IMG/VR virus record: IMGVR_UViG_3300030365_000081
Coordinates: 87,625 to 151,624 of that record
Length of the DNA stretch: 64,000 bases
Reading direction: 5' to 3' (one strand)
From: a virus
Shown: positions 48,934-64,000 of the stretch, in pieces
Layout: each line of letters opens with the position of its first letter
How positions within the stretch are numbered: the stretch's first letter is position 1
The notes under the pieces: model-generated
Seen by the model: only the letters and a program-made list of their open reading frames with translations
What the model was told of the DNA's origin: nothing
Database searches by the model: none
Translations under genes and position numbers: made by a program

Positions 48934-49026
48934 ACGGCAAGTCCGTAAGGCTGGTACTCCCACCCTGACTTGAACAGGGATTGCGCACTAATCTGGTGCT
49001 AGGCGGGCTATAAGGCCGCTTCTCTA
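48934..49026 (-). tRNA. atypical tRNA-like element (93 nt)
   Basis: rc = GCTCCCATA TCTC AATGGTA GAGA A GCGGC CTTATAG CCCGC [23-nt arm with GCAC/GTGC stem] CCCTG TTCAAGT CAGGG TGGGAGT A CCA. Good acceptor, D and T arms (TTCAAGT loop) and encoded CCA. Anticodon loop reads UAU with a C-C mismatch in the stem. Coordinates +/-1. Confidence 0.35.
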
Positions 49027-49138
49027 CCATTGAGATATGGGAGCATGTTACACCGTCCATAGTCACCTGCGACTTGGGCGGTAAGGAATGCGCTGGCCAA
49101 GAGTATATTTGAGGTATACTTGGTAAGTACAAACGTTT

Positions 49139-50548
49139 TTAAGATACTTTAGTCCACGCAGAGTGCATGGAGTTTGACGTTTTAACAATTTTTAGTTTTT
49201 TGAGACTGGCAGACTTTTTGCCGCTTTTTGATGGAGTTTTGAATTCTACGCCTACATAACCATTCTTTCCGGCATGAGTGCTATGGACAACAAGAATTTC
49301 TCCGTTAAGAGAAACCAAATCACCGGGATTGAGGGCTACCTTTTTGCGGCGTAGAGCACGGTAGCCTTTACGAGTCCTTTTCCCACGATACTTGTGCAGG
49401 TTCTCGGAATCCTTTTTATGGCTACGGTTGATTCTACCGTTAAAGAGGCTTCTGCCGTTAGCCACTTTGCCGGTGCGGATGTCAATGTACTGCGAGTCAT
49501 GAAATTTTTCGAGAATGCGGTTATTGCGTTTCACCTTTTTATAATGTTCAAACGCGCAGCGGTCAACTGGATGAAAGTTCCCCATTGCATACGCATCGTT
49601 GTTATGACACTTTTCAAGATGAAGAGCAATCCGCTTTTCCTTGGTCATTGCGCCATAAGTGAATGTGACGAACAGTTTTCCAAAAGTAGCGTAAAGCTCA
49701 TTAACGATTTGCCAGCGCACAGTGTTCATAAATGCTGCACCGGAAAGGTTGGCGAACTTTATATTTTCACCGAACCCATAGAGCTTGCTGCCTTTTTGGT
49801 GGTTAGCTGGTGTATGGCATTTTTCGCACACCGTCAATAGTTCATTAAGACTATTACCGTGACGACCTTTCCAGTAAAACATATGGTGCACATGTAAAAT
49901 GGCGCTATCATTTTTGGCTTTGCGCCCACAAACTTTGCAAGTATATTTATCACGATAGAATACCGCTTCTCTCAAGGTAGCCAAATTGTAGCGAGGGCCT
50001 TTTTGATAATCTGCGCCTTCCGGTATAGCTTTACCCTCCTGGATGGCTTTTACAAGCATTGTGTCGAAAGAACCAACTTCAACAGTTACATGCGTAATAG
50101 GAACTACCTCGCAATACATCTTGATGACATTGACGTTGAGTTCTTTCTTATGTTCAAGAGATGGTGCAAGCCAATCTTTATTCCGCTTACGATTATCGAA
50201 ACGCGGCTTGCGGTAACGTAACCTGTTTCTACGGATGCGGCGCATCTTACGACAACTATCGTGGCAGTCTTTCTCATCCTGCAATGTATCATATTGTACA
50301 GACACATATTCATGGGATTCACTTTTCACGCTGATGCCAATGTAGTTGTAACCCACATCCTCGCAGATTTCGATGGGTTGAATATTCGTTTCGCTGTCAT
50401 ACAGCAACTGGATGGTAAACGGATGATGCTTAATAATTTTTGCCTTTCCGTCTTTCAGGAGATGGCGCACCTTGCCAAGACGGATGGTCGGCATTAAGCG
50501 TTCGCCGCTCTTACTGAGAACACAAGCGCAAGTGCTCATGCAAGGCAC
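49139..50548 (-). CDS. iscB: IscB RNA-guided nuclease (OMEGA), copy A
   Basis: 469 aa. PLMP-type N-terminus (GERLMPT), RuvC-I (EDVGYNYIG), Arg-rich bridge helix (RKMRRIRRNRLRYRKPRFDNRKRNK), RuvC-II (VTVEVGSFD), HNH (CKVCG...HVHHMFYWKGRHGNSLNELLTVCEKCH), RuvC-III (HNNDAYAMG). Confidence 0.8.
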   Translation of the reverse strand: MPCMSTCACVLSKSGERLMPTIRLGKVRHLLKDGKAKIIKHHPFTIQLLYDSETNIQPIEICEDVGYNYIGISVKSESHEYVSVQYDTLQDEKDCHDSCRKMRRIRRNRLRYRKPRFDNRKRNKDWLAPSLEHKKELNVNVIKMYCEVVPITHVTVEVGSFDTMLVKAIQEGKAIPEGADYQKGPRYNLATLREAVFYRDKYTCKVCGRKAKNDSAILHVHHMFYWKGRHGNSLNELLTVCEKCHTPANHQKGSKLYGFGENIKFANLSGAAFMNTVRWQIVNELYATFGKLFVTFTYGAMTKEKRIALHLEKCHNNDAYAMGNFHPVDRCAFEHYKKVKRNNRILEKFHDSQYIDIRTGKVANGRSLFNGRINRSHKKDSENLHKYRGKRTRKGYRALRRKKVALNPGDLVSLNGEILVVHSTHAGKNGYVGVEFKTPSKSGKKSASLKKLKIVKTSNSMHSAWTKVS

Positions 50549-50850
50549 TCCTTTCGCAAATAATAAATCGATAAGTCAGGGCTTGCGCCCTGTGGTCCAC
50601 ATCGCCAATGTTGTTGTACTGTTTTACCTTTCGGTATGATGTTCGCACTTCTTCTACCCTCAGAGATTTTTAACAAACATCCGCAGAGCTTACCACTTGT
50701 GGAGTATGGATAAGGTGCCTATATTATTGGTACACAACGTAGTTTCCCCCGCTGCAGAAGCAACGGGCTTAGGCTAATCAACCGGACTTACGAATTTCCC
50801 CGCAAGTCCCGTCTATAACCGGCGGAACGGTTTAGGCGAGGTTGTTGACT
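50549..50850 (-). ncRNA. candidate omega-RNA scaffold of IscB-A (IS left end)
   Basis: About 300 nt directly 5' of iscB-A, with no ORF, about 80% identical to the region 5' of iscB-D (62513..62889). Contains conserved GNRA hairpin (cagggcGCAAgccctg) next to the RBS. Similarity stops abruptly after ...gttgttgact. Confidence 0.5.
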
Positions 50851-51333
50851 ACGTCCTTAGCAGGGACGCCTCTTAAACCAGCTTGAGTATTGCTCCGTGT
50901 GAAAGGGCATCCCACCCTTGAGGTACCAGCGACGTGCTTAGCCGTCTCGCCATATGTCGATAGGTACTTACCGCTGCTTACCACTCGCCGCAGCCCGGAG
51001 GACTTTCCCATCTTGCCACCAGTTGGAAAGGTGTTTGGAAGCCAACTGGAAGTTCCGCCGATCGGTTTCATGCCGGGTACTGCGTGTTAAGACTGCCGTA
51101 AAGACGGCTTTGAACCCGGCAAGGTGGACTGTTACCTGCCCGAAGGTGCAAACGGATTAGTTTTGAGGCAGTGTGCCGCTGCTCTGCCATTGCTTTAGCA
51201 TCTGGGGGTTAGACCAGAATAAAGCGTCCAGCGAGTTTATTTCACCCACTGATTTGACGGAGAGATTGCCCTCCGCGTACCCCAGACTTGACCGGCGCTG
51301 GGAGCCATGACGCCCCGGTGTGAACCGGAACGG

Positions 51334-62512: not shown

Positions 62513-62889
62513 GCAAGATACTCCTTTCGTAAAATAATAATAAAACTATAAGTCAGGGCTTGCGCCCTGTGGTCCACTTCGCCAATGTTATGCACTGTTT
62601 TAGCCTTTCGGCATGGCTTACGCACTTCTCCTACCCTTAGAGATGTTTAGCGGTATGTATCAACAACTTGCGCCATTGACACACACATTGCCCGCAGAGC
62701 CCGACACTTGTGGAGCATGATCGGGGTGCCTATATTATGAAGATGATTGCTCATCAAATGCATAACGGAGTTCGCGGCAACCGAAGTTGCCGTTCACCGA
62801 GGCTAATCAACCGGGCTTACGGGTTTCCCCGTAAGTCCCGTCTATAACCGGCTGACCGATTTAGGCGGGGTTGTTGACTTGGAACGAAG
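62513..62889 (-). ncRNA. candidate omega-RNA scaffold of IscB-D (IS left end)
   Basis: Homologous to 50549..50850. Similarity ends after ...ggttgttgact (62889). Flanking 20 nt differ (candidate guide). Confidence 0.5.
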
Positions 62890-63081
62890 ACGGCAGCGCA
62901 TGACCTGGATGGACTGAACGCTGCGCTGAAGACGGGCGGAAAGCTGACGGTCGGGGATGGAGTGGACGAGGATAAGATTCATTTCCTCGGTCGTCCATTC
63001 ACGCTTGGGGTAGCCAGCCGTTTGCCGGTAATTGTTGCGGCGATAATAATTGCGGGCAAGGGGATCAAGACGGGAAGACAT
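62842..63081 (-). CDS. hypothetical small protein whose 3' end overlaps the IscB-D left end
   Basis: 79-aa ORF. Last ~16 codons fall inside the region homologous to the IscB-A upstream region. Confidence 0.25.
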   Translation of the reverse strand: MSSRLDPLARNYYRRNNYRQTAGYPKREWTTEEMNLILVHSIPDRQLSARLQRSVQSIQVMRCRLRSKSTTPPKSVSRL

Positions 63082-63165
63082 GAGGGGAGTGGGTCAGCTC
63101 CTTGTTGGATTTGGGTATTTGCAAAATTAGGTGATTTTCTATTTGAAAATAGGTGGTCTACTAAT

Positions 63166-64000
63166 TTATGCAAATACAATTCCTTCGTTTTTGACAACAA
63201 ATTTACATTTATAATATGGATATGCGTTGCCATTCGTATTGTAATATCCATCTGCTTTGCCATTATGTGAGCCGCTAACTCCTTGCATCACATGAACTTG
63301 CCCGTCAACAAGAAATACACTTCCTGGATAGTTACGGTTCAAGTTTCTATATGCAGGATGATGCTCTTTCACCTTGAGCTTGCAAACATCACCTGGATGG
63401 CTTTGACGAAACTCTTCCAAACTGTCGGTAGTCTGTTTAATAGCCTTGTGGCGATTCGTTGCCACTGTTTTGCCATTGAGTGTGTACACGCGGCTCATGT
63501 TCGCTTTGTGTAGCACTCTTCTATCATGGCGGCGGAACTGCTTTAATTCGTATGGCACATGGCTGTTTATATTGCTATCACAAACATCGTTGGGTAAAAC
63601 AGAACAGGCAATGCAATAAGCATCAAGCCAATGGTCTTTACTCACACCGTGCGCTGTACGATAGTCGTAGGTACTTTTACCATTGGTCACAAAGAAATGC
63701 TTCGGAAAAAGAGAATTCATCTCTTTCGTCAATGCCGGAATGATTTGATTCAATACGCTCAAAGCACTGTACTTTTTGACGAGTCCGACTTTTTCTTTGG
63801 CGAGTTTCTTTTGCCAGGTAGCATCCTTATGAACGAGATTGTGATGCTCCGTGCATAGACCAACAATATTGGCGATAGTGTTGCTACCGTTTTCGGATTT
63901 TGGTACTACATGATGGTAATGTTCAATGGGCTTCTCACAAAATAGGCAATGGTGTTCCTGCATTTCAGAAACAGCATTTTCAAGGCTCCCTTTTTGGTAG
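63166..64000 (-). CDS. iscB: IscB RNA-guided nuclease (OMEGA), copy E, N-terminus outside window
   Basis: 265+ aa C-terminal part (HNH HHCLFCEKPIEHYHHVVP..., RuvC-III DHWLDAYCIA) about 85% identical to copy B. Frame is open to the window end. Confidence 0.75.
   Translation of the reverse strand, partial: YQKGSLENAVSEMQEHHCLFCEKPIEHYHHVVPKSENGSNTIANIVGLCTEHHNLVHKDATWQKKLAKEKVGLVKKYSALSVLNQIIPALTKEMNSLFPKHFFVTNGKSTYDYRTAHGVSKDHWLDAYCIACSVLPNDVCDSNINSHVPYELKQFRRHDRRVLHKANMSRVYTLNGKTVATNRHKAIKQTTDSLEEFRQSHPGDVCKLKVKEHHPAYRNLNRNYPGSVFLVDGQVHVMQGVSGSHNGKADGYYNTNGNAYPYYKCKFVVKNEGIVFA

Follow-up and report, generated by a model that had tools for sequence, protein, structure and literature searches.

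Five IscB–omega-RNA insertions of three lineages in a large gut phage, two of them with terminal inverted repeats and target-site duplications

The window studied here is a 64,000-nucleotide (nt) stretch of a viral record (IMG/VR IMGVR_UViG_3300030365_000081, positions 87,625 to 151,624), and its last 15 kb, from 48.9 to 64 kb, carries five genes for the RNA-guided nuclease IscB, designated A to E. In all likelihood this 15-kb stretch represents five independent insertions of IscB–omega-RNA (OMEGA) elements, drawn from three lineages, in a gut phage genome of ~154 kb. Three features go beyond the ordinary. Elements B and E, of the OgeuIscB clade, have an architecture of terminal inverted repeats (TIRs) and target-site duplications (TSDs), three IscB lineages have colonised one group of gut phages, and element E has a sweep-like distribution among them. 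The OgeuIscB clade is the IscB most used for genome editing.

IscB genes, omega-RNAs and empty sites

The five genes are long open reading frames (ORFs) on one strand:

49139..50548, minus strand: iscB-A ORF, 466–469 aa; Pfam RRXRR at E 2.5e-44, with HNH; catalytic motifs present
55145..56692, minus strand: iscB-B ORF, 512–515 aa, likely start ATG at 56683; Pfam RRXRR at E 1.6e-48, with HNH
57993..59255, minus strand: iscB-C ORF, 420 aa; Pfam RRXRR at E 5e-59, HNH at E 5e-8
61136..62512, minus strand: iscB-D ORF, 458 aa; Pfam RRXRR at E 2.7e-42, with HNH
63166 to the window end, minus strand: iscB-E ORF, cut by the window end; HNH match only within the window

Pfam RRXRR (PF14239) thus matches A to D at E-values of 1e-42 to 1e-59, together with HNH, and iscB-E is complete in the source contig (512 aa, L001 4552–6090). 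All five copies keep the PLMP or RLMP motif, the RuvC-I Asp, the RuvC-II Glu, the HNH His pair and the RuvC-III HxxD, and they have the features by which IscB is recognised: PLMP, a split RuvC, an Arg-rich bridge helix and an inserted HNH with its His. The product of iscB-B aligns end to end with OgeuIscB (PDB 7xht, E 7e-173), and that of iscB-C matches solved IscB structures in the PDB at E 5e-39. A first-pass annotation, made from the letters alone, had assigned five IscB genes of three subfamilies with the full domain set to this strand; the Pfam matches and structure alignments bear it out, and the motifs of the active sites proved intact in every copy. The subfamilies are A/D, B/E and C, with C on its own as originally proposed. 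No additional IscB copy was found by tblastn in 1–48 kb of the window. The proteins are under purifying selection, with a ratio of nonsynonymous to synonymous divergence (dN/dS) of 0.04–0.10 across copies and of 0.09–0.10 for the pairs B/E and A/D. Synonymous divergence (dS) is 0.83 for the B/E pair and ~2 for the A/D pair.

Upstream of the iscB genes lie ORF-free stretches of 215–366 nt, which the first-pass annotation had described as hairpin-rich and had expected to hold omega-RNAs. Scaffolds were delimited for four of the copies:

50590..50849, minus strand: omega-RNA scaffold of A; HEARO 80.8 bits, E 2.6e-15
56690..56898, minus strand: omega-RNA scaffold of B, OgeuIscB-type; conserved covarying hairpins, 43 sequences
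59318..59560, minus strand: omega-RNA scaffold of C; HEARO 69.9 bits, E 1.2e-12; predicted guide 59561–59576
62567..62878, minus strand: omega-RNA scaffold of D; HEARO 48.5 bits, E 1.8e-7; predicted guide 62879–62894; similarity to A starts here

The Rfam covariance model HEARO (RF02033) matches A, C and D over its full length, with scores that all lie below the gathering score of 83, that of A only just, and the DNA similarity between A and D starts exactly at HEARO position 1 (GTCAAC). B and E gave no match to HEARO, even when the leader of B was searched alone; this is unremarkable, since only ~65% of IscB leaders match RF02033 (PMC9755519). Across 43 distinct sequences their 209–215-nt leader is conserved. 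Its first 56 nt fold into a hairpin of 21 pairs, with numerous compensatory changes and, on this strand, G-U pairs. The omega-RNA of OgeuIscB consists of a 206-nt scaffold in which a “guide adaptor hairpin” directly follows the ~16–17-nt guide (PMC9640706), and the predicted first hairpin of B and E corresponds to it. A structured RNA upstream on the same strand, as expected of IscB, is therefore present, by model match for A, C and D and by conserved covariation for B and E. A promoter reading of the left edge of B and E (called as TTTACG-17-TAAAAT) was dropped, because the hairpin shows conservation with covariation and a third subclass is without the -10 element.

Flanks of each window copy were projected onto related loci, which were then scored as occupied or empty. 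At 70–100% identity, IMG/VR holds 111 B-type, 221 C-type and 130 A-type loci. Nearly all of these IscB relatives are full length and lie in viral contigs of 25–390 kb, and several genomes are multi-copy; IMGVR 3300045988_183639, for one, carries three B-type copies. All five window copies turned out to be presence/absence polymorphisms among related phages:

A site: 5 loci empty, with 145 nt present instead; 12 occupied; flank deletion
B site: 28 related loci empty; occupied in no relative, in this contig only; 8-bp overlap (duplication)
C site: 32 loci empty; 2 occupied (L002, L003); precise junction, no duplication
D site: 11 loci empty; 1 occupied (L002); precise junction, no duplication
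E site: 7 loci empty; 19 occupied; duplication, from whose left copy 3 bp are missing in the window

From this comparison the copies are best described as five independent mobile-element insertions and not as duplications within this genome. In particular, the pairs B/E and A/D, at first taken for recent paralogues, are not recent duplicates, because of their dS values and because each copy is an insertion with an empty site of its own.

Element ends and the search for transposases

The boundaries obtained from the empty sites divide the elements into two kinds. Those of B and E are as follows:

55092..56898, minus strand: element B, OgeuIscB clade, 1807 bp, TIR-bounded; precise against 28 empty loci with 8-bp overlap
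56876..56898, minus strand: left TIR of B, GGGTATTTACGAAATTTGGTGGT; doubles as the 5´ arm of the first hairpin in the omega-RNA
55092..55114, minus strand: right TIR of B, …CCCACCAAAAATAATAAATACCC
56899..56906, minus strand: left TSD copy of B, TAAATAAG, within the predicted 16-nt guide 56899–56914
55084..55091, minus strand: right TSD copy of B, TAAATAAG, followed by TAAAGGAGG (NNRR target-adjacent motif (TAM) and Shine-Dalgarno (SD) sequence of a PemK-like gene)
63113..64000 in the window, whole to ~64920 (L001 4336–6143), minus strand: element E, OgeuIscB clade, TIR/TSD type
63113–63135, minus strand: right TIR of E, with the right TSD copy AAATCCAA at 63105–63112

Units of the B/E type are bounded by TIRs of ~23 bp, e.g. 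GGGTATTTGCAAAAATAGGTGGT … ATCACCTAATTTTGCAAATACCC. The left TIR is at the same time the 5´ arm of the first omega-RNA hairpin, and the TIRs covary between the two ends across sub-lineages. The 8-bp duplication differs in sequence at every site. It is TAAATAAG for B and AAATCCAA for E, and elsewhere ATTATCAC, AAATGTTG, TCTAAACC, CAAATAAG, AATAACAG, TTTATATG, ATTAAAAG, AAAATCTA, ATGAGGTG, GCCGAAAT or GCGTGAAC. Empty B and E sites hold exactly one copy of the 8 bp. Among 35 distinct junction pairs the duplication is perfect (8/8) in 14 and 7/8 in two, and most of the remaining pairs join the left flank and the right flank of different sites. Copies of this last sort, seen in L073, L074, L044, L046 and others, point either to recombination between copies, by which phage genomes would be rearranged, or to chimeric assembly at the repeat.

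The same architecture is found beyond this phage group. A search of IMG/VR with 8-mer peptide patterns found no close relative of OgeuIscB itself, and OgeuIscB-like proteins were reached by protein search instead. On other gut contigs, the OgeuIscB-like L290 has a perfect 23-bp TIR and the TSD ATAAGCAA, L391 has a TIR and the TSD AGCGTTAA, and L390 has a different TIR, GGGCTCTCCCAACTTCGTGGTTG, with a 7-bp TSD. A contig of a Lachnospiraceae metagenome-assembled genome (MAG) carries a 282-bp ORF-less derivative (L275 14–295), in which both TIRs and the omega-RNA are kept, iscB is deleted, and the TSD is GAAGTTTT.

ISC elements and the IS200/IS605 group have neither TIRs nor TSDs, and B and E do not conform to this. 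They are not members of IS200/IS605, since TIRs and TSDs are incompatible with Y1 peel-and-paste transposition. TIRs with a fixed-length duplication of a variable target are the mark of DDE-type insertion sequences, and this B and E do show. The IS6 and ISL3 families both make 8-bp TSDs, and the ends of B and E may resemble those of one or the other. We also considered a staggered cut by IscB as the source of the 8-bp duplication. It was rejected on two grounds: an HNH cut should leave a 3-nt offset between duplication and TAM, which here directly adjoin, and a guide from the old site cannot select a new one.

Remnants and variants of these units were also observed. Solo left ends consist of the hairpin only in L303, L317, L325, L346 and L357 and of the TIR only in L306 and L350; truncated units keep ~70 nt in L328 and L354, and in L322 iscB is cut after ~25 codons. 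Solo-TIR and truncated units in related phages imply that the elements also decay by deletion. The E site has two occupied forms. One has the full left duplication AAATCCAA (gap 1812–1813, 8 loci), and in the other CAA is lost and the guide register is shifted (gap 1809, 11 loci and the window genome). The allele of the window contig (L001 4328–4335) was set against L021, L027 and L034 in this comparison. In L050 an A-type element is itself interrupted, in its 3´ non-coding part, by a B/E-type element whose TSD is ATTAAAAG, and this nesting shows that IscB lineages insert within each other.

The ends of A, C and D are of another kind:

49047..50849, minus strand: element A, ISC / IS200-IS605 type, ~1803 bp; right end truncated, boundary approximate
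57943..59560, minus strand: element C, ISC / IS200-IS605 type, 1618 bp
61067..62878, minus strand: element D, ISC / IS200-IS605 type, ~1812 bp
50850..50896, minus strand: 5´ half of a disrupted tRNA-Ser(GCU), 47 nt left; its last 16 nt (50850–50865) are the guide position of omega-RNA A

Their left ends begin GTCAAYAAC, that of A coinciding with HEARO position 1, and there is no TIR and no target duplication. The end hairpins are alike within each element type (CCACGACTAAAGTCGCGG and CCCATGACTGAAGTCACGGG in C, CGCCTAAACCGGTTCGCCGGTTATAGACGG and CGCCTAAGTCGCAAGCGACTATAGACGG in A/D). Right ends abut ATGA, ATGG or ATAAA, often the start codon of a gene; in 21/32 distinct C-type right flanks an ORF of 40 codons or more starts with this ATG. 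Absent TIRs and TSDs, subterminal hairpins and a fixed motif are together the end structure of ISC / IS200-IS605 elements, to which A, C and D conform. In the window, C separates the SD-spacer …AAGGTAGGTAATTTGCT from ATGAAT, with which the next gene starts. A right-end hairpin that would place an SD at the end of iscB-C near the downstream ATG exists as a fold (z = -3.1) but pairs the SD-like bases, and it was not relied on. D splits the last sense codon and the stop of a 79-aa ORF (62842–63081), and in 11 related loci its empty site reads TTCCAA|ATAAA or ATAGA, with no duplication.

The right end of A is shorter than the family consensus. The 145 nt found at the empty A site comprise the 3´ half of a tRNA-Ser(GCU) and a spacer, and ARAGORN calls an intact 94-nt tRNA-Ser(gct) there in empty genomes (e.g. 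L102 3332–3425). The window genome lacks this tRNA, whose 3´ half A replaced. As the gene is intact in empty genomes and reduced to its 5´ half in the window, A destroyed a phage tRNA gene; the first-pass description had placed the IscB genes among tRNAs and missed that this copy disrupts one and does not merely adjoin it. In L291–L296 (3738–5640), a 58%-identical IscB (P0102) was seen inside a 14-gene tRNA array of another phage group, with what look like the two halves, 5´ and 3´, of a single tRNA on its two sides. Here too, then, an IscB element may have split a phage tRNA gene.

The window contains no Y1 TnpA, as first noted. In five related phage loci (L242, L083, L048, L073, L004) Y1 TnpA does occur, as part of IS605 units with TnpA and TnpB; the TnpA matches (E 1e-21 to 1e-23) are borne out by visible HUH and Y motifs. 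These IS605-type units show that the phage group hosts TnpB as well as IscB elements. In the unit at L242 5510–6404, the DNA upstream of TnpA (5250–5400) reads, by eye, like tRNA genes. Partners of B and E were sought with one 22-nt TIR pattern. In 2 Mb of related phage DNA, the spacing of TIR pairs corresponded to 1.8-kb and 282-bp units only. A scan of 185,579 species genomes gave one true match, the Lachnospiraceae MAG contig with the ORF-less derivative, and in IMG/VR the pattern found only IscB units, truncated or solo-TIR remnants, and chance hits in coding DNA. An autonomous copy with B/E ends and a cognate transposase was not among the units recovered in these scans. A tblastn search for an IS26-type transposase found nothing in 0.9 Mb.

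Guide position, target motif and spread

OgeuIscB has NNRR as its TAM, and its seed comprises the 8 TAM-proximal nt (PMC9640706). The guide of each copy is probably the ~16 nt just 5´ of the scaffold, i.e. the left flank. Targets for the guides were suggested as a check on the first-pass annotation, and the 16-nt guide position of every copy does match the uninterrupted allele in related phages. After the match, the empty alleles continue with TAAA (B), ATGA (C) and ATAA or ATAG (D); the occupied alleles continue with GGGT or GTCA, which are not NNRR. Across B/E-type units, NNRR directly follows the duplication in 13/15 sites, against a background of 0.22–0.35 (p ≤ 5e-5 even versus SD-proximal sequence). 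This suggests that the insertions able to home are those that persist.

A promoter-like site (TTGACT-17-TG-TATGAT, 56926..56954, minus strand) lies in the flank upstream of B and is predicted to start an RNA ~20 nt before the scaffold. In 28 related phages the same promoter directly precedes the PemK-like gene. Element B thus parts this strong promoter-like site from a PemK/MazF-like toxin gene (54645–55064, minus strand), beside which no antitoxin was identified.

The spread of an insertion can be followed best for E. The element is 99.4–99.8% identical in 19 phage genomes, in which the adjacent 300 bp of flank are 93–97% identical and more distant flanks 94–97%. Left-flank haplotypes of the occupied genomes differ within 13–60 bp of the junction and are common to empty genomes. 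That E transposed independently to one base each time, with an identical duplication, is implausible, and had it descended vertically it would have diverged like its flanks. The simplest reading is recent copying of E into diverged empty alleles that already existed, which would be homing with very short conversion tracts. A gradient of co-conversion in the right flank could not be measured, as D lies only ~235 bp from the right end of E in the window genome. Among the features of homing-endonuclease genes, presence/absence polymorphism and target logic are seen, and the signature of spread for E only.

We propose the following course of events. Each unit has the order omega-RNA gene, iscB, right end. 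The omega-RNA would be transcribed from the flank or from the left edge of the element, so that its 5´ ~16 nt, by homology with OgeuIscB, would equal the DNA outside the left end. IscB and its omega-RNA would then recognise, and presumably cleave, the flank sequence only where a NNRR-type TAM follows, i.e. in the uninterrupted allele; in the occupied allele the first bases of the element (GTCA or GGGT) replace the TAM. In a cell with both genomes, the empty allele would be cut and repaired from the occupied one and the element thereby copied in, as the population pattern of E suggests, and such homing may also handicap the rival genome. First arrival at a new site would need a transposase acting in trans. 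For A, C and D, the hairpin ends, the lack of a duplication and a target 5´ of ATGR/ATAAA point to a Y1 TnpA; for B and E it would be an enzyme that recognises ~23-bp TIRs and, like DDE transposases, cuts its target with an 8-bp stagger.

Several points tell against this proposal. Cleavage, transcription and transfer are all deduced from sequence. The ends of the IS605 units with TnpA and TnpB in related phages do not match those of A, C or D, and no transposase for B and E was found in the 2 Mb of related phage DNA, in the 185,579 species genomes (by TIR pattern) or in IMG/VR. Purine-rich SD regions raise the background of NNRR, and the low divergence of E may be due in part to assembly effects at repeats or to recombination in which conversion tracts are very short. 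Finally, A and the window allele of E face no valid TAM in empty alleles: the intact counterpart of A continues with GGGT, and the window E has lost 3 bp of its left duplication, so that its guide register faces CAAC. A, with its truncated right end, 145-bp flank deletion and missing TAM, and the window E may no longer home.

One alternative is that the elements are passive passengers that came from the bacterial host by ordinary transposition, in the course of infection or of plasmid-like carriage, and are kept by drift, with no role for IscB in their spread. We consider this improbable. A transposase in cis is indeed missing, and there is damage to point to, in the truncated right end and deleted flank of A, the eroded duplication of the window E, and the several solo-TIR and truncated remnants in related phages. 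Drift does not, however, account for a dN/dS of ~0.1 over a dS reaching saturation, for the enrichment of NNRR right after the duplication, or for an element E that is nearly identical across diverged backgrounds at one exact site. Moreover, the B/E TIR occurs in only one of the 185,579 species genomes, so the reservoir looks phage-borne and not chromosomal.

Slightly less probable still is that the IscB genes are domesticated, fixed and non-mobile weapons of the phage, aimed at competitor phages, host defence loci or the chromosome. Strong purifying selection and intact active sites would be expected of a weapon, five copies cluster beside the replication module, and the guides match sequences of related phages. 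But every copy has discrete transposon ends and is polymorphic for presence at its own site, B and E carry target-site duplications, and the same lineages occupy dozens of different sites in related phages. The guide position simply equals the flank, as in all OMEGA elements, and no guides were found that had been retargeted away from it.

It is hardly credible that 48.9–64 kb is host chromosome or a mis-assembled join: the source is a metagenomic contig, repeated elements can mislead assemblers and some IMG/VR junction pairs look chimeric, yet the same gene order, with or without the insertions, recurs at 94–100% identity in dozens of independent IMG/VR viral contigs of 90–270 kb and in other ENA/Logan assemblies, and phage structural and replication genes occupy 1–48 kb of the same contig, so that the stretch belongs to the phage replicon as first assumed.

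To return to homing by mobile elements, the first-pass annotation had suggested a phage-borne homing or competition system. The guide matches, the NNRR motifs of B, C and D and the spread of E fit this idea. Homing into empty alleles is what has been proposed for OMEGA transposons at large and is not an invention of phages. A further observation concerns the empty C alleles, 8/32 of which (L084, L246, L021, L101, L167, L103, L104, L094) read …GGTAGGTAATTGTTATG instead of …GGTAGGTAATTTGCTATG. The difference falls where the predicted C guide has its TAM-proximal seed, and these alleles may resist cleavage.

Known systems and genomic setting

B and E resemble OgeuIscB, an IscB from the human gut (PDB 7xht, 7utn, 8csz), from end to end and with all catalytic residues. 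Their upstream RNA is of the same length class (~206–215 nt), with a long hairpin directly after the guide position, and their sites carry the same NNRR TAM. They differ in the linker between bridge helix and RuvC-II, which is ~20 residues longer, and in the first hairpin, with 21 predicted pairs (columns 2–56) compared to a 14-bp duplex within 43 nt (PMC9640706). Published work treats IscB as borne by IS200/IS605 (PMC9640706), whereas the units of B, E, L290, L391 and L390 have TIRs and 7–8-bp TSDs.

ISC elements are IscB-encoding relatives of IS200/IS605 with no TIR or TSD and with similar hairpins near their ends (Kapitonov et al., 2016, PMC4810608). Elements A, C and D resemble them in being non-autonomous units of 1.6–1.8 kb that encode IscB only and insert immediately 5´ of a short motif, N|ATGA being among the published targets. 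They differ in residing in a phage population and not in a bacterial chromosome, and in that the motif ATG is a start codon in 21/32 C-type sites. The ends of B and E do not fit this family at all.

A parallel to B and E comes from TnpB, which is known from DDE-type, TIR-bounded transposons (review PMC13565253) with an IS630, ISL2 or IS1031 transposase as partner (Altae-Tran et al., 2023, PMC10691335). In those elements the OMEGA nuclease lies at most 250 bp from one end and “solo” nuclease-only copies share the ends, as in B and E, which look like the IscB counterpart (PMC10691335). TnpB differs in having its guide at the 3´ end and a known transposase partner, of which none was found for B and E. 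Our literature search found no report of an association of IscB with TIR or DDE-type transposons.

T4 seg and mob homing endonucleases are likewise present or absent at one site in a phage population and cut the empty allele and are copied in during co-infection (intronless homing), as is predicted for the elements here (review PMC13565253). The elements described here differ in that the guide RNA automatically equals the flank, so that it is the insertion, and not nearby polymorphism, that distinguishes self from non-self. They are also bounded transposons, with conversion tracts, if any, of less than ~50 bp, and not the free-standing genes whose niche they had been thought to fill.

One intriguing possibility, on which we find the arguments evenly balanced, is that the OgeuIscB clade travels not in IS200/IS605-type elements but in an undescribed class of TIR transposons with 8-bp TSDs, housed mainly in large gut phages, mobilised by a transposase in trans, and sweeping through populations by RNA-guided homing. 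If true, this would be a natural case of the phage-to-phage “non-restorative homing” so far known from theory only. That IscB and its omega-RNA themselves aid the transposition of B and E, through pairing of the RNA with both ends, is much less likely. Most IscB loci lack TnpA, and their means of spread is still an open question (PMC9755519). The TIR/TSD ends mean that at least one major IscB clade moves by a mechanism other than Y1 peel-and-paste, in parallel with the TnpB–DDE associations and with eukaryotic Fanzors, and, with a target choice this loose, one may ask how guide acquisition and TAM compatibility are maintained. A phage population with hundreds of polymorphic insertions, matched empty sites and three lineages offers a natural system in which to measure RNA-guided homing. 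The natural ends and the ORF-less omega-RNA miniature may inform minimal guide scaffolds for OgeuIscB. Since the elements interrupt promoter–gene and SD–start-codon junctions and a tRNA gene, they also shape phage gene expression.

The window lies, in reverse orientation, within a 154,152-bp metagenomic contig (ENA ERZ827177 NODE_32; coordinate mapping verified) that extends ~66 kb past it; the five genes do not, as had been supposed, mark the end of the phage genome. From 1 to 48 kb it encodes tail and pre-neck-appendage proteins, NrdD, a DnaB-like helicase, a PD-(D/E)XK nuclease and PhoH, and the window also holds a split PolIII-alpha-like polymerase and a Rep/ParA/ParB module. The host replicon is a large (~154-kb) gut phage of Bacillota, possibly a phage-plasmid. 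Its polymerase shares 31–38% identity with the enzymes of Geobacillus virus E3, Bacillus siphophages and an uncultured human faecal phage. INPHARED gave no megablast match for 24–48 kb or 48–64 kb, and hence no annotated close relative there. The genome had also been called rich in homing endonucleases; no homing-endonuclease family was matched among the 20 other ORFs scanned. Two tRNA features lie near A:

48952..49044, minus strand: tRNA-Ile(tat), tRNA call; 93 nt, unusually long; adjoins the right end of element A
51334..51961, minus strand: cluster of tRNA-Thr, tRNA-Gly and tRNA-Thr, upstream of A

The IscB genes had been described as interleaved with tRNA genes, which is true of A, flanked by tRNAs at 48.9–52 kb, and not of the other four copies.

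The replication-initiator-like gene, ParA (AAA_31/CbiA) and the ParB-like gene are grouped at 16441–20208 (plus strand). This grouping suggests a phage-plasmid lifestyle, which would prolong the co-residence of genomes and favour homing. The polymerase (33103–37543, minus strand) is divided into two ORFs, 36329–37543 and 33103–35031, and the 1.3-kb gap between them contains a 318-aa ORF (35328–36284) without a Pfam match; it may represent a mobile element lodged between the two, or a homing endonuclease from a family not yet recognised. Between D and C (59590–60629) the window genome has a CinA-like gene and a 136-aa membrane ORF; in L002 and L003 these are replaced by other cargo, ORFs of 60 aa and 199 aa on the opposite strand.

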